In this document: positions 1,834 to 28,433 of the stretch, in pieces
Layout of the letters: the number at the start of each line of letters is the position of its first letter
Position numbering within the stretch: position 1 is the first letter of the stretch
Assembly: GCA_041483195.1 (NCBI GenBank)
Contig: JBGPFC010000044.1
Coordinates: 1 to 28,528, forward strand
Source: Candidatus Eiseniibacteriota bacterium
Lineage (GTDB): Bacteria > Eisenbacteria > RBG-16-71-46
Reading direction: 5' to 3'
DNA: 28,528 nucleotides
Program-made: the position numbers and the translations under genes
The notes under the pieces: model-generated
The model's database searches: none
Told to the model about the DNA's origin: nothing
What the model saw: the letters and a program-made list of their open reading frames with translations, nothing else

Positions 1834-4200
1834 TCATTCGAGCACGACTATCTTGCGTGTCACGCTCACACCTGCCGCCTCAAGTCGGCAGAAATAGCAA
1901 CCTGCCCTCCATCCGTCAGTTCTAATTGTCACGTCGTAGGCACCCGCGGGGCGCAGCTCACCGTCGAGGAGCACTGCGACCCGGCGACCCTGGAGGTCGT
2001 ACACGACCAGCGATACGGGCGCGCGAGACGGGAGCGTGAAGCGGATCAGAGCCTTCGATGTCGCTGGGTTGGGGACCGCCTGCCCCAGCGACAGCGAAGG
2101 GGCCACTTCGCGCAAGGGAACGTCGACCGTGGTCGAAGTGATCGCCGCCAGATAGGACTGTGGCTGCCTGCCGATAGACGCGAAGTCACCTCCTGCATAG
2201 ACTCTAGCCCCGACCGCCGACACGGCGTACACATGCCAGTCGGCGTCCGGGTTCCACGGGGTAGCAAGACCGGTTGTGGCGTCCAACGCGGCGATGTAGT
2301 TGCGCTGCTGCCCGCCTATGCTCTGGAATTCACCGCCCACATAGACTGTGTTTCCACTCGCCGACACGACGTGCACCCAGCTGCTCGCATTCGGGTTCCA
2401 CGGTGTCAGGACATCCGTTCGGGTGTCCAATGCGGCGATGTGGTGCCGAGACTGCCCAGCGAGAGTGTTGAAGTAGCCGGCGATGTAGACCGTAGTTCCG
2501 CTCGTGGCCAAGTGGTAATACTGGCCGAATGTAGTCGGGTTCCAGGCGGTCGCGGCCCCCGTTATCGTATCCAGGGCCGCGAGGTGGGAGCGGGATTGAC
2601 CGCCGATCCGCGCGAAGTCTCCGCACGCGTAAACCTTGCCTCCACACACCGCCACATCGTGCACCTCCGAGCTCGCGTCCGGGTTCCAGCCCGTCGCGGC
2701 GCCCGTCGTGGCATCCAGTGCGGCGATGCGGTGGCGTACCTGCCCGCCGATACTGGTGAAGAACCCGCAGGCGTACAAGACATCCCCGGACGGCACCACG
2801 CGGTCCACAACATTGTCCGCATCCGGATCCCACGCCGTGGGCGCGCCGCTCGCGGCATCCAGCTCGGCGATTCGGTTGCGAACCTGCCCACCGATGCTGG
2901 TGAAAGACCCGCAGGCGTAGATCCGGCCCGCATTCACCGCGAGATCGTAGACAGGCCCGTTGGCGTTTGGGTTCCAGTCGGTCGGCGCGCCCGTCGTGGC
3001 ATCCAGGGCGGCGAGCCGGTTGCGCGTCAATCCGCCGAACATGAACTCTCCACCGAGATAGATCCTGCTCCCGTTCAGTGCCGCGGAATAGACAACCCCA
3101 CTCATGTTTGGATTCCAATCAGTCACGAGGCCGGTCGCGACGTCGACCGTGGCAATGCGATTTCGCGCTTGCCCGCCGATGTGCCACATGTTCCCGGAGA
3201 CGAACACCGTGGATTCACTCGCCGTCAGGTCGAACACCCAATCATCCGGGTCCGGATTCCAAGCGGTCGCGCCCCCGGTCGCAAGATTCAGCGCCGCAAG
3301 ATAGTTGCGCGCCTGCCCGCCGATGTTCGTGAAGATGCCACCGGCATACACCGCGCTGTCGTTCAACGCAATAGCAGACACGATGTCATCGGCGTTCGGA
3401 TCCCAGGAGGTGGCAAGCCCGGTCGAGGAGTCCAGCGCGGCGATGTAGTTGCGCTGCTGCCCGCCAATGTTCTTGAAGTCACCACCGACGTAGAGTGTGT
3501 TGCCCCTCGTGACGATGGCACGCACCTCGAGATCCGGATTTGGGTCCCAGGGCCTCGCCGCACCGGTTGCAAAATCCAGTGCCGCGAGCCAACTGCGCGC
3601 CCTCCCACCAATGATCGAAAAGAATCCCGAGGCATAGATGGTGTTTCCGTTCACGGCCAGCGCTTCGACCAGGCCACTCGCGTTTGGGTTCCACGCGCTA
3701 GCCGCGCCCGTGGTGGCATCTAGCGCCGCAAGCTTGTTGCGCGTCTGCCCGCCGATGCTGGTGAAATCCCCGCCCACGTACACCGTTGATCCGCTCACCG
3801 CGAGGGCGAGGACCACGTTGTCGGCGTTCGGGTTCCACTCCGCCACGATGCCGTTCGCAAGAATGTGACCCAGGTTGGAGCGAGCGAGCCCTCCTGCGGA
3901 CGCAAAGTCGCCGCCGATGTACCAGCCTCCCGAGCCATCCGGAGCCACTGCAAGAACCCGGCCCGCGATTTTGGGGAATAGTTGCGAGATCGCGCCACTC
4001 GACAGGTCAAGTTGCACGCCCCCACCTGTGGCGCGTCCCACCCGCGTGAAATATCCACCAATGTAAATAGTGTTATGGTCGCGCACGATTGCTGACACGG
4101 TGCCGTCCGTCACCCACAGTCTCGTATCAATGGCCTGGGCACAGACCGTCGTCGCCCCAATAAGCAGAGCGCACGATGCTCTCAATACGAGCGACGTCAT
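1834..4200 (-). CDS. Secreted repeat beta-propeller protein (about 14 x 48-aa W[ND]P repeats) with C-terminal T9SS-CTD/FlgD-like domain
   Basis: Repeat consensus WNPNAD..V.ALAVSG..VYVGG.F.SIGGQ.RN.IAALD.TTG. C-terminus PNP...F.LP...VYDLQGRRV...RKIVVLE. ATG at 4200 has a GGAGGAGG RBS and a signal peptide (MTSLVLRASCALLIGATTVCA-Q). The frame stays open to 4413. Confidence 0.88.
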   Translation of the reverse strand: MTSLVLRASCALLIGATTVCAQAIDTRLWVTDGTVSAIVRDHNTIYIGGYFTRVGRATGGGVQLDLSSGAISQLFPKIAGRVLAVAPDGSGGWYIGGDFASAGGLARSNLGHILANGIVAEWNPNADNVVLALAVSGSTVYVGGDFTSIGGQTRNKLAALDATTGAASAWNPNASGLVEALAVNGNTIYASGFFSIIGGRARSWLAALDFATGAARPWDPNPDLEVRAIVTRGNTLYVGGDFKNIGGQQRNYIAALDSSTGLATSWDPNADDIVSAIALNDSAVYAGGIFTNIGGQARNYLAALNLATGGATAWNPDPDDWVFDLTASESTVFVSGNMWHIGGQARNRIATVDVATGLVTDWNPNMSGVVYSAALNGSRIYLGGEFMFGGLTRNRLAALDATTGAPTDWNPNANGPVYDLAVNAGRIYACGSFTSIGGQVRNRIAELDAASGAPTAWDPDADNVVDRVVPSGDVLYACGFFTSIGGQVRHRIAALDATTGAATGWNPDASSEVHDVAVCGGKVYACGDFARIGGQSRSHLAALDTITGAATAWNPTTFGQYYHLATSGTTVYIAGYFNTLAGQSRHHIAALDTRTDVLTPWNPNASSWVHVVSASGNTVYVGGEFQSIGGQQRNYIAALDATTGLATPWNPDADWHVYAVSAVGARVYAGGDFASIGRQPQSYLAAITSTTVDVPLREVAPSLSLGQAVPNPATSKALIRFTLPSRAPVSLVVYDLQGRRVAVLLDGELRPAGAYDVTIRTDGWRAGCYFCRLEAAGVSVTRKIVVLE

Positions 4201-4387
4201 ATACCTCCTCCAATGGCCCTGGTCACTACGTGTGATCACCTCGCTCGTGCCCCTGGCAATGCGACGGCCGTGTCGCAACAGCCACGGGCGCTGGGGAATC
4301 ACCGAGGCACCGATCACGAAAGGGGCGAATGTGGAGACACTCGCGACGCGGCGGGGAAACGCACCGCACGGGCGCGGTATGACATTG

Positions 4388-4575
4388 CGATTGAACATGA
4401 GCCACCTGCTCATGCCGCAGGAGCATCACGTCTCGCGTGCGGAGCGGCTCACCCCACGCGGGGCGCGCGCGTCGAAGCCGATGGCGTCAGAGGGTGGGTT
4501 CCGGTGAGCGCCACGATTCCAGCTGTGGCGTGCCTCAGACACGGAGAGGGTAGCACTCCCCCATGGCGAGTCCAG
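4388..4575 (-). repeat. Conserved promoter/5' leader element, copy 1
   Basis: 4388-4560 matches 7084-7256 at 167/173 nt, plus a shared GAGTCCAG block at 4568-4575. Confidence 0.95.
4547..4574 (-). promoter_or_regulatory. Putative sigma70-type promoter TGGACT-N16-TACCCT with extended -10 TG
   Basis: Both boxes are identical in the second copy (7243-7270) while part of the spacer differs. Confidence 0.55.
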
Positions 4576-4595
4576 TGCGCGTCTACCGGCTGCCC

Positions 4596-7109
4596 CTAAC
4601 GGAGCATGACCAGCCTCTTGACCGCGACCTCACGCCCCGCGCGGACTCGCAGGACGTAGACGCCCATACGCGTCATCGCGCCCGAGTCATCCCGCCCGTC
4701 CCAGCGGATTCTGTGCTCGCCCGGCGTCTCGAGCCCCCCGGACACCAGTGACCGAACCTTGCGTCCGGCGAGATCGAACATGCTCAAGTCCACGGTGCAC
4801 GCGATCGGCAGTGCGTATCGAAACTCGTTCGTTCCGTGAGAAGGATTGGGAATGGGTGCTGCAAGCTGAAGAAACTGCGAAGCGACGAATGGCGCTTGAT
4901 TCACATCGAGTGTTCCAGGTCCGATGTTCATGAGCACCACAACTCGGTTGTAGGTCGCCACCGCCAAGTCGGGCCTTCCGTCTGCGTTGAGATCCCCGAT
5001 CGTTACCGTGGAGGGTCCGGCTCCAGCTCCGAAGTCCGTCTTCTTCCCAAAGCCCCCGTCACAGTTCCCGAGCAGCACCGAGACCGTGTTGGAGCCGTTC
5101 GCTACAGCTAGGTCGGGTTTTCCATCCACGTCGAGATCCCCAATCGCCACGGAGCTGGGCTGGCTCCCCGTGCTGTATTCGGTATTCACTCCGAAGCTCC
5201 CGGCGCCGTTGTTGAGCAGTACCGAAACCGCACTCGAGTAGGAGTTCGCTACCGCCAGGTCGGGGTTGCCGTCGCCGTTCATGTCGCCGATCGCCACGAA
5301 GCTGGGATAGTCCCCCGTGCCGAAGTCGGTCTTCGCCCTGAAGGTTCCGTCGCCGTTTCCGAGCAGGACCGAAACCGTATTGGAGCGGCAGTTGGCCACG
5401 GCGAGATCGGCTTTCCCGTCCGCGTCGAGGTCGCGGATCGCCACGTACGCCGGGACTTGCCCCGTTCCGAAGTCGGTCCCCATACCGAAGGTGCCGTCCC
5501 CACGACCGAGCATCACCGACACCGTGTTTGAGGTGGAGTTCGTAACCGCCAAGTCAAGCTTGCCATCCATGTTGAGATCCCCGATCGCCACGGAGAAAGT
5601 GACCCCCCCAGCCCCGAGGTCAGTCTTCTCCCCGAAGGTCCCGTCGCCACGGCCGAGCAAAACTGACACTGTGTTAGAGAAGTAGTTTGCCACCGCCAAG
5701 TCGGGGCTGCTGTCGCCGTTGAGGTCCCCGATCGCCACGGAGATTGGACCATCCCCCGTCCTAGAGTCCCTCTTCGTCCCGAACGTCCCGCCACCGCTGC
5801 CGAGCAGCACGCACACCGTGTTGGAGTCCGAGTTCGCTACCGCCAGGTCTAGTTTCCCGTCCGCGTTGAGGTCCCCGATCGTCATGGGGCCGAACCCACC
5901 GCCCGTCTCGAAGTTTGCCTGCGTCCCGAAGCTCCCGGTGCCGTCGCCAAGCATCACGGACACGGCACTCGAGGTTGCATCCGCCACAACCAGGTCGGGT
6001 TGCAGATCGGCGTTCAGATCCCCGATCCGTACGGATTGGGGGGTAACCCCCGCCCCGAAGTCGGTCTTTGCCCCGAAGGTCCCGTCGCCGTTGCCGGGCA
6101 ACACCGACACCGTGCTGGAGGCTGAGTTCGCCACCGCCAAATCGGTGTTGCCGTCGCCGTTGAGATCCTCAATCGATACGAAGGTGGGAGATCCCCCCGT
6201 TGCGTATTCGTGCTGAATGCTGAACGTGCCATTGCCATTGCCAATGAGAACCGACACCGCGCTGGTACCGTAGTTCGCCACCGCGAGATCGGGGTTCCCA
6301 TCCGAGTCAAGGTCCCCGATCGTCACGGAGAACGGCAGGCTACCCGTTCCGAAGCCAGTCCTCGCCCCGAAGGTCCCATCACCATTTCCGAGCAGTATCG
6401 ACACCGTGTTGGCCCCCCAGTTGGTCACCGCCAGGTCGGGTTTCCCGTCGGCGCTGAGGTCCCCGATCGCCACAGAGGTGGGTCCACTCCCCGCCCCGAA
6501 GTCGGTCTTTGCCCCGAAGGTCCCGTCGCCATTGCCGAGCAGCACTGACACGGTGTTGGACCCGCGATTCGCGACTGCCAGATCGGGCTTCCCGTCCATA
6601 TTCAAGTCCTCGATCGCGACCGAAAAGGGCTGGGCAGCCGTGTGGAAGTCGGTCTTGCCGCCGAAGGTCCCATCGCCATTGCCGAGCAGTACTGACACTG
6701 TATTCGAGCTTCCGGTCGCCACCACCAGGTCGAGCTTCGCATCGGCATTGAGATCCCCGACCGCCACCGAGTAAGGCTCGCTCCCGGTTTGGAAGTCCAT
6801 CCTTGCCTGAAATGTCCCGTCCCCGTTGCCGAGCAGCACCGACACCGCATGGGAACCAGCGTCCGCCGTCGCGAGGTCGAGCTTTCCATCCCCGTTGAGG
6901 TCCGCCATCACCATGGCGAAGGGCTCCCTGCCCGTGTCAAACGATAGGAACGGTGCGGCGAACAAGGGAGCCGCGACAGCGACTCGCAGTTGAGCTGTGG
7001 AGATGACGACTGCGCACAGGGGGAGCGAAGAGATCATGGCGACGCCGCGGGCGAACCCACCGCGCGTGCGTTGTGTCGCTTTTCGATTGAACATGAGCCA
7101 CCTGCTCAT
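4596..7109 (-). CDS. Secreted FG-GAP/VCBS repeat protein (14 x 49-aa repeats) with C-terminal FlgD-Ig/T9SS-CTD-like domain
   Basis: 14 GDLNxDGKxDLAVAN...VSVLLGNGDGTF repeats. C-terminus PNPS...DLAGRKVRSL...WDGRDDSG...KRLVMLR. The start could be the second ATG at 7094. Confidence 0.92.
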   Translation of the reverse strand: MSRWLMFNRKATQRTRGGFARGVAMISSLPLCAVVISTAQLRVAVAAPLFAAPFLSFDTGREPFAMVMADLNGDGKLDLATADAGSHAVSVLLGNGDGTFQARMDFQTGSEPYSVAVGDLNADAKLDLVVATGSSNTVSVLLGNGDGTFGGKTDFHTAAQPFSVAIEDLNMDGKPDLAVANRGSNTVSVLLGNGDGTFGAKTDFGAGSGPTSVAIGDLSADGKPDLAVTNWGANTVSILLGNGDGTFGARTGFGTGSLPFSVTIGDLDSDGNPDLAVANYGTSAVSVLIGNGNGTFSIQHEYATGGSPTFVSIEDLNGDGNTDLAVANSASSTVSVLPGNGDGTFGAKTDFGAGVTPQSVRIGDLNADLQPDLVVADATSSAVSVMLGDGTGSFGTQANFETGGGFGPMTIGDLNADGKLDLAVANSDSNTVCVLLGSGGGTFGTKRDSRTGDGPISVAIGDLNGDSSPDLAVANYFSNTVSVLLGRGDGTFGEKTDLGAGGVTFSVAIGDLNMDGKLDLAVTNSTSNTVSVMLGRGDGTFGMGTDFGTGQVPAYVAIRDLDADGKADLAVANCRSNTVSVLLGNGDGTFRAKTDFGTGDYPSFVAIGDMNGDGNPDLAVANSYSSAVSVLLNNGAGSFGVNTEYSTGSQPSSVAIGDLDVDGKPDLAVANGSNTVSVLLGNCDGGFGKKTDFGAGAGPSTVTIGDLNADGRPDLAVATYNRVVVLMNIGPGTLDVNQAPFVASQFLQLAAPIPNPSHGTNEFRYALPIACTVDLSMFDLAGRKVRSLVSGGLETPGEHRIRWDGRDDSGAMTRMGVYVLRVRAGREVAVKRLVMLR

Positions 7110-7271
7110 GCCGCAGGAGCATCACGTCCCGCGTGCGGAGCGGCTCACCCCACGCGGGGCGCGCGCGTCGAAGCCGATGGCGTCAGAGGGTGGGTTCCGG
7201 TGAGCGCCACGATTGCGACTGTGGCGCGCCTCAGACCCGGAGAGGGTAGCACTCCCGCGGGGAGAGTCCAG
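7084..7271 (-). repeat. Conserved promoter/5' leader element, copy 2
   Basis: Direct repeat of 4388-4575 at an offset of 2696 bp. Confidence 0.95.
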
Positions 7272-7316
7272 GGTGACCAAAGGGACCGGGGCCCCGCCCG
7301 CCCCATTCGCGAGGCC

Positions 7317-10175
7317 TCACCTCAACACGACGGACTTGGCCGAAAGCGCTCGGCCCGCCTGCGTGAGACGGATGACGTAGACCCCGCCCTGGAGCGCGCG
7401 CCCGGCGGCGAGATTGACTTCGTGCCAGCCCGGGCCCAGTCGCCCGCATTCTCTGGAGGCGATCCTTCGACCGGCGACGTCGAACAGCTCGAGCGTCGCA
7501 GCATCGTCGGTCGGCAGCTCGACCGAGACGACGATCGCATCGCCGCTCGAAGGATTGGTCTGCGGCCGCGCCGATAGCACGAGCTGCGCCACGTGCACCC
7601 GGGCCCCCACGATGACGTCGGCTCCGTCGATGCTCGCGCGCAGGCGGTACTCGTAGTCGCCCGGGGACACGCTGCTCTCTTCGTACACCCACCTCCCGCT
7701 CGCGTCCGATACGACCCTGCCGACCTGCTGCCACGGGACATCAAGCGCCCTTCGATCCACTTCGGCCTCCGCCCCCGACCCGCGCGGTCCGGCCCAGGTC
7801 AGTTGCACCCGGCCGCCGCGAACCTCGGTCCCGACCAGTGAGATGTTGGTGGCCGTGATCGTCCCGCTCCGCACGAGCGTCGAGCAGGTGTCCTGGTATC
7901 CGGGAATGAACGGGTCGCGAGCGGTGAAGCGGACCACGGTCGAATGTCCGTCGGAGCCCGCGGGCGGGTGGAGCGTCGCCGACACGTTCAGCGTTCCCCC
8001 GTTCGCGGCGAGCGTCTGCGATCCCGACATCGCGGGGGCGGCGCCGGTGATCCAGCCCGCGTCATCCGAGAGCGTCCACTCCAGCGGCGTATCGAAGTTG
8101 CACCCGTTCGCCAGGGAGAAGTCGATCGCCGTGTTCTGATCCGCGGGGATCGTGCGCGCTCCGGGGCACACGACGGTCGTGCTCAACACCGAGGCGTCCA
8201 CGAACACGTCGGGATCGCCCAGTCGAGAATCCGTGAAGGCGGAGTAGAGATGGTCGCCATCGATCGCCAGCTCGGCGAAGTCTCCCTGGTTGTTGCTATT
8301 GCACGAGGCGAGCGCCCCCCACAGAGATGACGCATCCGAGAGCCTGCGATTCGCGCCCCATGTCGTCCCGCCATCGCCGGACGAAGCCAGGTACTGGTCG
8401 GAGGTCGCGCCGCACGACGGATCGCCGCGGTAATCCATCCAGAAGCAGTGCACGCGCCCGCGGCCGTCGACCGCGATCGACTCGAGGTGTCCGTCGAACC
8501 CTACCGCGCTGTCGTTGATGCGCACCGGCGCGCTCCAGGTCAACCCGTCATCCGAGTGCGCCACGAACTGGTCTCGGATGTCGCGGGCGAGGTCGCCCGG
8601 GGCCGGCGGGTCGAGGCCCGTGACGAACGTGTAGGTGCCGACGTTCGCGAATGGAGACTGGATCTGAAGATAGTAGCGGCCGTCGTACGGCAGCCCGGCG
8701 ACGAAGCCGTACGGATAGGTGGCGAGGACGTGGTAGTTGGCCAGCGTCGAGGTATCGGAAGGACAGATGAGACGCACGCGCAACGTGAGAGTCTCGGGGT
8801 TGAGCGAATCGGCGAAGATCGAGATCACCTGGCCGTGCTTGCCGGTGAACGTGAACATGTCGTTCTCGACCCCGGGAACTGAGCCGCGAAGCTTCACGCC
8901 GGGCGTGAAGGGCGTCGGCGATGCGAAGAAGTTGTTGTTCTCCCGCTCGACCACGACCGTGGATGAGTCGAAGACCGTGTCGAACACGTCGGGCATCTCG
9001 TTCCAGGTCAGATAGAGGCGCCCGCGATGCGGGCCGTGGCTCATGTCGACCGCCATGGACATCAGCGGCTCGAAGAATCCCCGCTGGTCTCCCGGCGGAA
9101 TGGCCTCCACGTTGAAGCTGAACGTGTGCGCCACCGCGACCGGGCCGAACGTGGCGCCGAAGTCGTCAGAGCGCACGACCTCGAACGCGCTCGAAGTCGG
9201 GGTGGTCCCGTCGGTCGTGGCGCCCCAGCCGACGTACACCCTGCCGTCGGGGCCGGCGACCCCGTAACTGCCCTGCACGTCGAACTGAGGAATGGCGTTC
9301 GATCGAAGCACCTGACGCGAGCCGAGTGGGGCGAGGTTCGCGTCCAGCCGCTGGAGCTCGATGCCCTCTGAATCCGTCGCGAAGTTGAAGTTCGTCCACG
9401 TGACGTAGACATCTCCGGAGAGCGAATCGACCGCCACCCACGGCTTGTCGTGGAGTTCGTCCGGGGTGGAGAGCGAGACGACGGTGCGAACGTCGATCGA
9501 GAAGGTGTCCGCCACGAAGTGCCCGCGCAGTGCCACGACGCCGCCGAAGGTGCCGCTCGAGCCCGACTTCATCAGCCCCGTGATATAGAACGCGCCGCTC
9601 TTGCGATTGACCGCCACCGAGGGATCACCGGCGAAGAGGTATTGCGAGGAGGGACCGTACAGCAGTCCCCCCTCGCGGAACGTGGCGCCGAAATCCACGG
9701 AGTATCCGAAGCTTTGCCCCGGATTGGTCCCGCTCATGCAGCGTCCGCGCGGCTCGTTCCAGCTGACCAGCACGTAGCGGCCCCAGGCGTCGACGGATTC
9801 CTCCGCCTGGTTGAGCGGCCGGCCCGAACAGGTGCAGATGCTCAGGCTCCGATTGTTGACGATGGCGTCGGGCCCCAGCGCCGGCGGCGCGCTCAGGCCG
9901 ATGATCGAGGATTCGGTGGAGACGCGTTCGGCGGGCGCCGCCTCCCGCAACGCATCGAGCGCCTCGAGGCGCTCGATGTGCGCGCGTACGCTGGGAATGT
10001 GGTGATAGGCCCCGGCGTCCCACAGATCGAGCAACAGGCCTTCGCCGGCGGATGAGAGCGGAACGAACGCGTCTGGGGGTCGCGCGCGGGGACCGAATCG
10101 CGCGGAGGCCGCAGCCGGAAGGAGGGCCAGCCACGCGAGGATGAGCACGGCCGGGGCAAGCGCTCGACGTGGCAT
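7317..10175 (-). CDS. Secreted sialidase-like (BNR/Asp-box) propeller protein with PPC-like insert, Ig-like domains and T9SS-CTD-like C-terminus
   Basis: Asp boxes YSVDFGATF, RSDDFGATF, HSDDGLTW and SSGDGGTTW. Signal peptide MPRRALAPAVLILAWLALLPAAASA. GGAG precedes ATG 10175. C-terminus LFDVAGRRI...KSVVLR. Confidence 0.85.
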   Translation of the reverse strand: MPRRALAPAVLILAWLALLPAAASARFGPRARPPDAFVPLSSAGEGLLLDLWDAGAYHHIPSVRAHIERLEALDALREAAPAERVSTESSIIGLSAPPALGPDAIVNNRSLSICTCSGRPLNQAEESVDAWGRYVLVSWNEPRGRCMSGTNPGQSFGYSVDFGATFREGGLLYGPSSQYLFAGDPSVAVNRKSGAFYITGLMKSGSSGTFGGVVALRGHFVADTFSIDVRTVVSLSTPDELHDKPWVAVDSLSGDVYVTWTNFNFATDSEGIELQRLDANLAPLGSRQVLRSNAIPQFDVQGSYGVAGPDGRVYVGWGATTDGTTPTSSAFEVVRSDDFGATFGPVAVAHTFSFNVEAIPPGDQRGFFEPLMSMAVDMSHGPHRGRLYLTWNEMPDVFDTVFDSSTVVVERENNNFFASPTPFTPGVKLRGSVPGVENDMFTFTGKHGQVISIFADSLNPETLTLRVRLICPSDTSTLANYHVLATYPYGFVAGLPYDGRYYLQIQSPFANVGTYTFVTGLDPPAPGDLARDIRDQFVAHSDDGLTWSAPVRINDSAVGFDGHLESIAVDGRGRVHCFWMDYRGDPSCGATSDQYLASSGDGGTTWGANRRLSDASSLWGALASCNSNNQGDFAELAIDGDHLYSAFTDSRLGDPDVFVDASVLSTTVVCPGARTIPADQNTAIDFSLANGCNFDTPLEWTLSDDAGWITGAAPAMSGSQTLAANGGTLNVSATLHPPAGSDGHSTVVRFTARDPFIPGYQDTCSTLVRSGTITATNISLVGTEVRGGRVQLTWAGPRGSGAEAEVDRRALDVPWQQVGRVVSDASGRWVYEESSVSPGDYEYRLRASIDGADVIVGARVHVAQLVLSARPQTNPSSGDAIVVSVELPTDDAATLELFDVAGRRIASRECGRLGPGWHEVNLAAGRALQGGVYVIRLTQAGRALSAKSVVLR

Positions 10176-10271
10176 CGCGGTCTCCAAATGTGCTACCGGC
10201 GGGGGTGTGCCACGATTTTATCACGAGCGCCGTGCGTGCGGCCACGCCCCGGCGGCCACGCCGCCCGTCGC

Positions 10272-10730
10272 CTACGGCAGCCACCTCGCGAGCAGCCACC
10301 TGCCGAGGTGCAGGGTGCCCAGCGCGGTCGCGCCCGCGATCACGTCGTCGATCACCACGCCGATGCCGCCCGGCAGCTTCTGCGCCTCGCGCGCGCCGAG
10401 CGGCTTCCACACGTCGTAGATGCGGAACAGCACGAACGCCACGCCGAAGTAGATCCATTGATGCGGCACCGCGATCAGCGCGAGGCTCTGGCCCACCACC
10501 TCGTCGGCCACGATCGGATGCGCATCGTGACCGAGTTCCTTCTCGGCCTCGCCGCAGATCCAGATCGCTGCGGCGGTGCCGGCGACGAACAGCGCGACGG
10601 TCACAGGCCAGGCTGGCACCGGCAGGAACCATCCGATGAGCGCCACGACCAGGCTCGCGACGGTGGCGGGGACGATCGGCGAGAAGCCGATGCCGCCCAG
10701 CGTCGCGAGCGCGCGGACCAGCGCCTTCAT
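10272..10730 (-). CDS. pgpA: Phosphatidylglycerophosphatase A
   Basis: HDAHPIVADEVVGQ, FVLFRIYDVWKP and GGIGVVIDDVIAG. ATGA overlap with the mglA stop. Confidence 0.9.
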   Translation of the reverse strand: MKALVRALATLGGIGFSPIVPATVASLVVALIGWFLPVPAWPVTVALFVAGTAAAIWICGEAEKELGHDAHPIVADEVVGQSLALIAVPHQWIYFGVAFVLFRIYDVWKPLGAREAQKLPGGIGVVIDDVIAGATALGTLHLGRWLLARWLP

Positions 10731-11350
10731 GCGCTCGCCGCTTGCGCTGGGACCGGCTGGGGGCCGGCGAGCCGCGCGAGCACCGCCTTGCATGCCGCGC
10801 GCAGCGTCTCGGTCACGCCGCGGCCCTCGCACGCGACGGCCTCGAATTCCGGAGCGCCCTCCGGATTGAGCGCGGCGCGCAACCGCTCGATCGGAACCGC
10901 GGACGCGAGATCGCGCTTGTTGTACTGGAACAATCGTGGCACGCGCCGTACCTGATCCGCATTCAGTCCGTTCGCGGTCAGGTGCTGTTCGAGATCGACG
11001 AGCGAATCGCGGTTCGCCCCTTCACGCGCGGGATGCGAGTCGGCAACGAACACCAGGCCGTCCACGCCCTGCAGCACCACGCGGCGCGAGAGCCGGTAGT
11101 AGACCTGCCCCGGCACGGTATAGAGATGGAAGCGCGTGGTGAAGCCGTTCACCTGCCCGAGGTCGATCGGCAGGAAGTCGAAGAACAGGGTGCGCTCGTG
11201 GTCGGTGGCGATGGAGATGAGGCGGCCGCGCCGCTCGGGCGGGAGCCGGTCGTGGAGCTGCTGGAGATTGGTGGTCTTCCCGCACAGACCGGGGCCGTAG
11301 TACACGATCTTGAAATGAATCTCGCGCGCCCGATGATTGATGAGCGCCAT
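10727..11350 (-). CDS. mglA: MglA-family small Ras-like GTPase
   Basis: KIVYYGPGLCGKTTNL, ERTLFFDFLP, FHLYTVPGQ, GVDGLVFVADS and NKRDL. Confidence 0.95.
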   Translation of the reverse strand: MALINHRAREIHFKIVYYGPGLCGKTTNLQQLHDRLPPERRGRLISIATDHERTLFFDFLPIDLGQVNGFTTRFHLYTVPGQVYYRLSRRVVLQGVDGLVFVADSHPAREGANRDSLVDLEQHLTANGLNADQVRRVPRLFQYNKRDLASAVPIERLRAALNPEGAPEFEAVACEGRGVTETLRAACKAVLARLAGPQPVPAQAASA

Positions 11351-11396
11351 CTCGCCCCCGTGGCGGCCGCGCGATCCGCCGCGGCGGGCCCGCGCT

Positions 11397-11882
11397 TCAG
11401 TCGCCGAACAGCGCGTCCACCTCGCGTCCGGCGGCGTCCGCGAACTCGGGCGAGGTCTCGGCGGTCTCGCCGATGCCGATCTTCTCGAACAACCCGCGGA
11501 ACACCTCGTCGAGCTGCCCGCCGGCACGCCGCGCGCGGAAGCGCACCAGGCCGAGCGTGCTGCGCTTGTCGAACACGGTGCACATGATGACGCGATCCGC
11601 CAGCAGGCACGAGTGCACCGATCGGGTCTTGCCCTCGCTCACCACGGCTTCCACGCCACGCTCGCCCAGCAATTGCGACAGCTCCGCATTCGCCGTGAAA
11701 TCCGCGGCGACCAGGCTGGCGAATGCCGTTGCGTCGAAGTCGCCCGTGCGCCCGGCCGTGGTGATCAGCTGGCCGGAGCGATCGACGAGGTGCACCGAGA
11801 GCGCGTTGGTGCGCTCCAGCAACTCGCTCAGGACGAGGTCGATGGCCCGAAAGTCATTTTCGAACAGAGTCCATTGAGGCAT
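11397..11882 (-). CDS. mglB: MglB roadblock/LC7 GTPase-activating protein
   Basis: LVDRSGQLI, FASLVAADFTANAELSQLLGE and FDKRSTLGLVRFR, with an acidic C-terminal helix. Directly upstream of mglA. Confidence 0.92.
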   Translation of the reverse strand: MPQWTLFENDFRAIDLVLSELLERTNALSVHLVDRSGQLITTAGRTGDFDATAFASLVAADFTANAELSQLLGERGVEAVVSEGKTRSVHSCLLADRVIMCTVFDKRSTLGLVRFRARRAGGQLDEVFRGLFEKIGIGETAETSPEFADAAGREVDALFGD

Positions 11883-15975: not shown

Positions 15976-16003
15976 AGAGTTCCGGTTCCGCGGCGTGCAA
16001 GAA

Positions 16004-16101
16004 GGGCCAGGCGTACAGCGGCACACCCGAGGGATTGCTTACCGCTGCTACCTTCCGGTCCTGACGGGGTTCACAAGTTCGGGTTGCGCTGGGCCTGGCC
16101 C
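16004..16101 (-). ncRNA. ffs: SRP RNA (small, 4.5S type)
   Basis: Helix-8 signature GTCAGGACCGGAAGGTAGCAGC, complementary ends GGGCCAGGC/GCCTGGCCC, and position upstream of dnaX. Confidence 0.95.
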
Positions 16102-16109
16102 AAGAAAAA

Positions 16110-16185
16110 TGGTGGAGATGAGCGGATTCGAACCGCCGACCCCCTCGTTGCGAACGAGGTGCTCTCCCAGCTGAGCTACATCCCC
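16110..16185 (-). tRNA. tRNA-Ala(CGC)
   Basis: 76-nt cloverleaf, anticodon arm CCTCG-TTCGCAA-CGAGG, G3:U70 pair, encoded CCA. Confidence 0.97.
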
Positions 16186-21014: not shown

Positions 21015-21105
21015 TGGCGGAGAGAGAGGGATTCGAACCCTCGAGGCGGTATTAGCGCCTACACGATTTCCAATCGTGCTCCTTCAACCGCTCGGACACC
21101 TCTCC
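21015..21105 (-). tRNA. tRNA-Ser(GGA)
   Basis: Anticodon arm CACGA-TTGGAAA-TCGTG, long variable arm, G73 and CCA. Confidence 0.97.
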
Positions 21106-28343: not shown

Positions 28344-28433
28344 TGGCGGAGAGGGAGGGATTCGAACCCTCGAGGCGCTTACACGCCTAACGGTTTTCGA
28401 GACCGCCACCTTCAGCCACTCGGCCACCTCTCC
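28344..28433 (-). tRNA. tRNA-Ser(CGA)
   Basis: Anticodon arm GCGGT-CTCGAAA-ACCGT, long variable arm and CCA. Confidence 0.97.

Follow-up and report, generated by a model that had tools for sequence, protein, structure and literature searches.

The window analysed here is a contig of 28,528 nucleotides from a Candidatus Eiseniibacteriota bacterium. Its minus strand carries the same leader sequence twice, as a direct repeat of 253 nt (4323-4575 and 7019-7271) at an offset of 2696 nt. Copy A lies upstream of gene A and copy B lies directly upstream of gene B. The identities given for the arms are mean pairwise values across the leader family described below.

1834..4200, minus strand: gene A, a secreted DUF5122 beta-propeller protein with a C-terminal sorting-type domain
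4323..4385, minus strand: FG-GAP signal-peptide coding remnant of copy A, 67% identical to copy B without gaps
4396..4398, minus strand: family start codon of copy A, aligned to the start codons of homologues
4414..4418, minus strand: 3' arm GCGGC of copy A (identity 0.86; 5 parsimony changes in 5 columns)
4419..4443, minus strand: 25-nt spacer between the arms of copy A, of low identity
4444..4448, minus strand: 5' arm GCCGC of copy A (identity 0.95; 3 parsimony changes in 5 columns)
4449..4540, minus strand: 5' part of the predicted UTR of copy A, including hairpin (i) of the earlier note
4547..4555, minus strand: predicted extended -10 box TG-n-TACCCT of copy A, from the homologue motif
4569..4574, minus strand: predicted -35 box TGGACT of copy A, placed by its spacing to the -10 box
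4596..7094, minus strand: gene B, a secreted FG-GAP repeat protein with a FlgD_ig C-terminal domain
7092..7094, minus strand: start codon of gene B (copy B), from an alignment of the N-termini of 15 homologous proteins
7110..7114, minus strand: 3' arm GCGGC of copy B, offset by 2696 from copy A
7140..7144, minus strand: 5' arm GCCGC of copy B, offset by 2696 from copy A
7243..7270, minus strand: predicted promoter of copy B (-35 box at 7265-7270, extended -10 box at 7243-7251)

Gene A (PF17164, PF18962, and TIGR04183 above the cut-off) encodes a signal peptide, as read from the translation, and has its own translation signals, namely a strong Shine–Dalgarno sequence at 4204-4211 and an ATG at 4198-4200. 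This ATG lies 198 nt past the family start codon of copy A in the same frame, and the translation shows that the decayed signal-peptide remnant after 4396-4398 shares its frame with the true start at 4200. The additional ATG at 4411-4413 has no counterpart at this place in family members other than the two window copies. Gene B contains 13 stretches of PF13517 together with PF01839 and PF13860, encodes a signal peptide, and is the native gene of the leader family. Its nearest Atlas cluster is commonest in Ca. Eiseniibacteriota, and no solved structure matched it by sequence. A DDE transposase gene (PF13701) lies beyond gene A at 214-1623. Genes A and B, which adjoin this transposase gene, have GC contents of 0.59-0.69, below most of their surroundings. 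Three secreted genes with related C-terminal sorting-type domains stand in tandem across 1834-10187, and the host genome encodes dozens of such domains.

The two copies are 95.5% identical across 4386-4562 and 67% identical in the flanks (4323-4385 and 4563-4580); identity is at background past about 4580 and 24% across 4230-4279. The shared sequence starts just upstream of the predicted -35 box of copy A. Within 4396-4544 the copies differ at exactly the six positions listed in the earlier note (4433, 4519, 4521, 4522, 4531, 4541). Over the last 100 nt of the leader, copies A and B are 99% identical but their signal-peptide DNA is only 67% identical; other close pairs in the family show the same direction with a weaker contrast (93/76 and 83/70% for leader and signal-peptide DNA). 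We infer that the history of copy A was a duplication followed by decay of its signal peptide. Recent gene conversion of the leader may perhaps have occurred alongside the duplication, and the two are not separable here.

To collect homologues, a profile was built from the two window copies. This led to a third copy, diverged in sequence and located on a separate contig of the same genome before a paralogue 55% identical to gene B, and to further copies in two relatives. A BLAST-type DNA search of the same genome returned only the two window copies. Among 60 relatives this search gave 12 weak matches that proved to be short GC-rich stretches; the one examined in detail, in G010, falls within the coding end of a different gene. 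Scans for exact 20-mers in metagenome contigs and in genome contigs yielded three matches each, none similar beyond the pattern itself. Iterated profile searches, with every candidate judged in its context, led to 20 members; 34 of 50 profile candidates (18/28 and 16/22) were dropped as coding or unrelated. Profile matches in G184 and G106:C94 were set aside on the same grounds after reading their context, as were all five weak matches from 20 extra genomes. A profile of the protein N-terminus alone gave 73 matches, comprising 16 known members and 57 others. Six of these 57 carry the element, five of them clearly and one (G090) with both arms altered; the remaining 51 newly inspected upstream regions do not have it. 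These six were recognised by eye, as their scores with the DNA profile were low (best E 0.019). In the order (Ca. Eisenbacteria), the final model matched 26 sequences spread over 14 of 102 genomes. One of these was new, the other 25 having served for training; a further, weaker training member brings the leader set to 27. Samples of 151 genomes from the class and 151 from the phylum outside the order, in which a first-look filter passed 27-47 candidates per genome to scoring, contained no member.

In 23 of the 27 cases, the leader directly precedes a gene of one secreted FG-GAP subfamily, some of these genes being broken. The other four leaders (copy A, G013, G035 and G073b) are joined to other secreted genes. 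Eleven members come from a single genome, G073 (79% complete, 5% contamination), where they are found at L088, L113, L114, L147, L153, L185-L188, L190 and L243 and fall into two lineages. In the larger of these lineages the UTR is shortened, the -10 box lying 90-104 nt ahead of the start codon, and the -35 boxes are near-canonical.

The homologues also point to a promoter. Of 26 homologues, 20 carry the motif [TG][GT]nTAnnnT at 90-149 nt ahead of the start codon, compared with a mean of 4.4 and a maximum of 11 in shuffled sequences. Across 1712 upstream regions of the host genome, TGnTAnnnT is found 161 times in the sense and 53 times in the antisense orientation, and 44 times after shuffling. 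A strict scan with the E. coli consensus found no promoter and did not pick up the -35 box of copy A. We predict from these data that the leader family has a sigma-70-type promoter with an extended -10 box and a spaced -35 box. Transcription from it would start at about 4540 in copy A, and the predicted extended -10 boxes are in agreement with the start sites near 4540 and 7236 that had been guessed from the two copies. The -10 box lies at a variable distance from the first arm (38-100 nt).

Downstream of the promoter, the family shares an inverted repeat, GCCGC-N(24-26)-GCGGY, that ends 14-17 nt before the start codon. The spacer measures 24-26 nt in 26 of 27 members, and 31 nt in one member with both arms intact. 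With the arms serving as alignment anchors, which inflates these figures, mean pairwise identity is 0.95 for the 5' arm and 0.86 for the 3' arm. The spacer and flanks reach 0.39-0.53 (0.53 for the first 13 nt of the spacer, 0.39 for its last 8 nt), values to be compared with 0.54 at four-fold degenerate sites of the genes and 0.49 in signal-peptide DNA. By parsimony, the 10 arm columns together account for 8 changes, compared with about 7 for a single spacer column. Half-site positions 1 and 4 contain six of the eight arm changes, which read G to A in both arms. Beyond the arms, the only core columns with three or fewer changes are an upstream GG and two single C columns. The inner flanks of the arms are mirror-like (C opposite C) and not dyad-symmetric. 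This pattern is that of purifying selection on part of the leader, as judged from the alignments, covering the promoter and the 5-bp inverted repeat and leaving the spacer neutral. The earlier note had called the leader conserved, and in this it was right.

One could argue that the leader has no present function beyond its promoter, that it was inherited together with the gene, and that the arms look conserved as they served as search anchors. Members found by profile are indeed biased towards arm retention, G035 most of all. Overall identity of the leader is 0.60 and that of signal-peptide DNA 0.57 in a separate measurement; the distribution is patchy (14/102 genomes), covariation and a regulon are absent, and 11 of 27 members stem from one incomplete and partly contaminated genome. 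Yet five paralogues retrieved by protein similarity alone, all four new top matches and a weaker one, carry both arms although the DNA model played no part in finding them, which argues that the arm signal is real. Moreover, the majority base exceeds 0.9 in just one of 37 four-fold degenerate columns, whereas in the ten arm columns it accounts for 21-25 of 25 sequences. We consider the absence of function unlikely.

The earlier note had proposed a riboswitch or attenuator formed by a bulged 5' hairpin (i) and two alternative structures over the ribosome-binding site and start codon, a local hairpin (ii) and a longer-range pairing (iii). These pairings can be drawn in both window copies. Hairpin (ii), at 4396-4414, forms all of its 7 pairs when folded alone. 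Its z score of -3.61 belongs to a hand-picked 19-mer, which is the only piece of the leader that stands out against shuffled sequences. The pairing of 4443-4452 with 4397-4406 (iii) does appear in the minimum-free-energy fold of the 60-nt fragment 4396-4455 (z -0.53), with an interior that differs from the three-way junction described. Structures (ii) and (iii) are mutually exclusive, as claimed, because both use strand 4397-4406. Hairpin (i) can be drawn, folds no better than shuffled sequences (z 0.00 for A, -1.21 for B), and, owing to the difference at 4541, retains its outer CCGG arm in copy B alone. The complete leaders do not fold better than dinucleotide shuffles either (copy A: z -0.13, 85 of 200 shuffles as good; copy B: z -1.33, 19 of 200). 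For the full UTR with 20 nt of coding sequence, the predicted probability of (ii) is 0.04 in copy A and 0.02 in copy B, and that of (iii) is 0.00 in both; forcing (iii) would cost 7.2 and 8.6 kcal/mol.

The homologues weigh further against these structures. In an alignment of 20 members, (iii) is 64.3% paired, a value equalled or exceeded by 474 of 500 shuffles, and its 10 pairs are complete only in the two window copies, the other 24 sequences retaining 2-8. Hairpin (ii) is 72.5% paired (28 of 500 shuffles as high), and its covariation score is borderline (8 of 500), a level often reached by related sequences that have no structure; 13-18 of 20 members retain the inner three pairs, and all seven are present only in the two window copies (2/26). 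The 5' part of the UTR is variable in length and sequence and gave no consensus pair among ten long-UTR members, hence none for (i); its first 50 nt have a mean z of -0.27, with 2 of 20 below -1.64. A small upstream CCCG/GGG hairpin was also considered and dropped, since it is 68% paired and lacks any two-sided change. When all column pairs of 26 sequences were compared by a G-test against a tree-based null, in our own implementation and with bases dropped from over-long spacers, none was significant (best E about 5.7).

Known regulatory RNAs offer no better match. No Rfam family matched the leader at gathering score, three chance matches within 4300-4650 having E values of 1.1-9.3, and the 20 homologous loci gave no match at all. 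Conserved unpaired nucleotides that could form a ligand pocket or junction were not found in the spacer (identity 0.39-0.53). The leaders do occupy the 5' UTR of functionally related genes, a position that they share because these genes are paralogues. Translational riboswitches and RNA thermometers sequester the Shine–Dalgarno sequence and sit in the 5' UTR by the ribosome-binding site. The leader resembles them in its location, and about a third of the members can form a hairpin that covers the Shine–Dalgarno sequence; unlike them, it has no covariation-supported structure, conserved junctions or Rfam match, and the covering hairpin is missing from the diverged clade of leaders. Attenuators that depend on a leader peptide or a terminator use a leader of 90-150 nt before a gene. 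The present leaders have this length. Unlike attenuators, they show no intrinsic terminator in the two window copies, runs of four or more U in only 3 of 26 members, and no conserved upstream reading frame or leader peptide in the homologues. Folding at the level of shuffles and lack of covariation had both been counted beforehand as refuting the switch, and the homologues largely refute it; a ligand riboswitch or attenuator that toggles between (ii) and (iii) appears very improbable. The proposal grew from two near-identical GC-rich copies, and the switch vanishes when diverged homologues join the alignment, a useful negative result.

A different RNA-based explanation deserves more weight. 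The repeat may be an RNA element at the translation start that is bound by a protein or a small RNA. The 3' arm would pair either with the first GCCGC or with a tandem second copy located 9 nt downstream of it; the second register would create a long hairpin over the Shine–Dalgarno sequence, and a protein or small RNA on the invariant 5' arm would shift the balance. Several observations are consistent with this proposal. The distance of 14-17 nt to the start codon is fixed, the arm-arm helix shows one path from G-C through G-U to A-U (G043/G040), one pair in the second register is compensated (G073b), and the 3' arm variants GUGGC and GCGGU retain G-U pairs. In two of three copies with a broken pair, an exact complement of the mutated 3' arm occurs nearby (6-9% by chance for each). 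One member tolerates a 6-nt insertion in its spacer. When the segment from arm to arm is folded alone, the arm-arm helix forms in 18 of 26 members, a result biased by cutting at the arms, and the 55-nt core has a z score below -1.64 in 8 of 26.

In full UTRs, by contrast, the arm-arm helix is not predicted: its probability is at most 0.05 in all 27 predicted UTRs, with a median cost of 6.9 kcal/mol, and forcing it barely alters access to the ribosome site (0.38 versus 0.40 unpaired). Four arm changes break the pairing. The helix is 93% paired with one compensatory change, and its covariation is matched by 208 of 500 shuffles, although it varies too little for this score to be informative. With so small a number of substitutions, the lack of covariation does not count as a negative (PMC7214042). 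The long hairpin over the Shine–Dalgarno sequence that was derived from the consensus is 63% paired, with compensations below the shuffled level (as high in 496 of 500). The diverged G073 clade of eight members has lost the second GCCGC copy, and there the spacer folds worse than shuffled sequence (mean z +1.0). Finally, the element is cut off from a working start codon in copy A and G035. On balance we consider an RNA element possible, though doubtful. Its most specific form, a helix-slippage switch that would open and close the ribosome-binding site as a single GCGGC strand changes partner from one tandem GCCGC copy to the other, seems distinctly improbable. If true, it would represent a new class of small cis-regulatory RNA for secreted FG-GAP surface proteins, controlled by some protein, small RNA or ligand, on a portable promoter-leader-signal-peptide module that had moved onto new passenger genes. 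With regard to partners in trans, the host genome contains 188 complements of the 5' arm region, 20 of them non-coding.

Read on opposite strands, the two arms are one and the same GCSGC site, which might make them methylation targets in an epigenetic switch. Paired GATC sites are methylation targets in phase-variable surface genes, and two sites at fixed distance upstream of surface-protein genes recall this arrangement. A C5 methyltransferase (PF00145) was, however, found in just two of the 14 carriers and not in the 96.8%-complete host genome, and in 10 of 26 members an arm departs from GCSGC. This scarcity of PF00145 and the frequent departure of the arms from GCSGC leave C5 methylation with a very small probability.

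We tentatively favour a reading in which the inverted repeat is a DNA operator for a putative regulator. The repeat is part of a cassette of promoter, 5' UTR and signal-peptide start that travels with the secreted FG-GAP subfamily in one Ca. Eisenbacteria order. The arms would act in DNA as two half-sites about 30 bp apart from centre to centre, or roughly three helical turns, and a putative regulator bound to them would block or modulate transcription from the upstream promoter. Copy A is a second copy of this cassette that would now drive a different gene, one with a ribosome-binding site of its own and a start codon 198 nt further on. The inverted half-sites are conserved at near-constant spacing around a neutral spacer, as expected of a transcription-factor operator. 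We prefer DNA over RNA as the probable substrate because the arm helix is improbable in full UTRs and leaves the ribosome site unopened when forced, because the half-site distance corresponds to about three turns, and because the tolerated arm changes are largely symmetric between the half-sites. The spacer, in addition, is neither selected to fold (mean z +0.12, controls +0.02) nor strand-preferring (10 of 26 favour sense). Lastly, the G035 copy has lost its start codon yet keeps both arms unaltered, along with a promoter at the usual distance; it could be found only by the arms that it kept.

Some observations speak against the operator. That the repeat sits at a fixed distance from the start codon but at a variable one from the promoter would fit translational control better; a spacer with a 6-nt insertion is tolerated once with the arms intact; and the site lies far downstream of the predicted transcription start for a classical repressor. 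A regulon is not apparent either, as non-coding DNA of the host genome shows no excess of the dyad at spacers of 24-26 nt (84 occurrences at 25 nt compared with 45-103 elsewhere). The mirror-like inner flanks and the lack of a regulator gene common to the neighbourhoods examined also count against it.

A precedent for widely spaced paired half-sites, and so a point in favour of DNA, comes from MocR-family regulators, with GabR binding ATACCA-N20-30-ATACCA and DnfR binding GGTCTG-N17-GGTCTG (PMC13689441). Compared with the sites given there, the leader repeat is alike in having two short conserved half-sites and a long spacer free of sequence constraint and of comparable length. It differs in its arms, which are inverted, 5 nt long, made of G and C alone and placed far downstream of the promoter, with no adjacent regulator gene. 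A MocR link was looked for and not found; the GntR-family genes of the host have no such dyad upstream, and the likeness to these sites is one of geometry only. More broadly, five GntR-family genes from four of five carriers have no such dyad upstream, and the fifth genome, G040, gave no GntR match. The upstream regions at L274 and L275 (G022 and G102) precede MocR-sized GntR regulators and contain repeated CCAAT/ATTGG, likely an autoregulatory site unrelated to the leader element.

We see the leader repeat as a new cis-element, restricted to one lineage, of a kind that is already familiar. Its 10 arm nucleotides offer a concrete handle on the possible control of secreted repeat proteins in an uncultured lineage, and its promoter-leader-signal-peptide unit has been re-used before other secreted genes in 4 of 27 cases, including copy A. 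Its reach is limited to one gene subfamily, carried by 14 of the 102 genomes in a single order. Should it be an operator, it would add a further site to a well-known class, and only as an RNA switch would it attract wider interest. A literature search on Eisenbacteria FG-GAP proteins, RNA motifs, type IX secretion and riboswitches found no description of the element, though an unnamed motif listed in an RNA-motif survey may have escaped it; a match for FG-GAP and riboswitch was an unrelated paper on rice.

The four re-used leaders take two forms. Window 4198-4398 and L257:8720-9070 (G035), from different genomes, both contain the promoter, the element and a decayed signal-peptide remnant, followed by an unrelated secreted gene with its own Shine–Dalgarno sequence and ATG about 180-210 nt past the 3' arm. 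In G013 and G073b the old signal-peptide start is fused in frame to new passenger domains (ASPIC/FG-GAP and BNR/sortilin, respectively). We considered whether the leader might be a mobile-element end or a gene-cassette site, and found no support for this idea: by eye, no sequence was shared beyond the stop codons of 17 genes, nor above the -35 box in 20 members. No regulator gene is common to the 22 neighbourhoods examined, which are mostly unrelated.

Transposase-like genes or remnants, recognised by eye from translations, occur in or just upstream of several member loci, namely L253:351-2205 (G043), L261:744-2236 (G073), L263:823-2127 (G073) and L080 near 4400 (G022). The one in G043 appears to truncate the FG-GAP gene. 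Elsewhere in the window, 7317-10187 is a 956-residue reading frame with no Pfam or NCBIfam match and at least eight long paralogues in the genome (28-51% identity). At 10275-11882 stand a Roadblock/LC7 gene and a small Arf-like GTPase gene, which we take to be an MglB/MglA-like pair, and after them a PgpA gene. A tRNA gene lies immediately 5' of the small SRP RNA and dnaX (16002-16185), and two further tRNA genes are located at 21018-21105 and 28347-28433.
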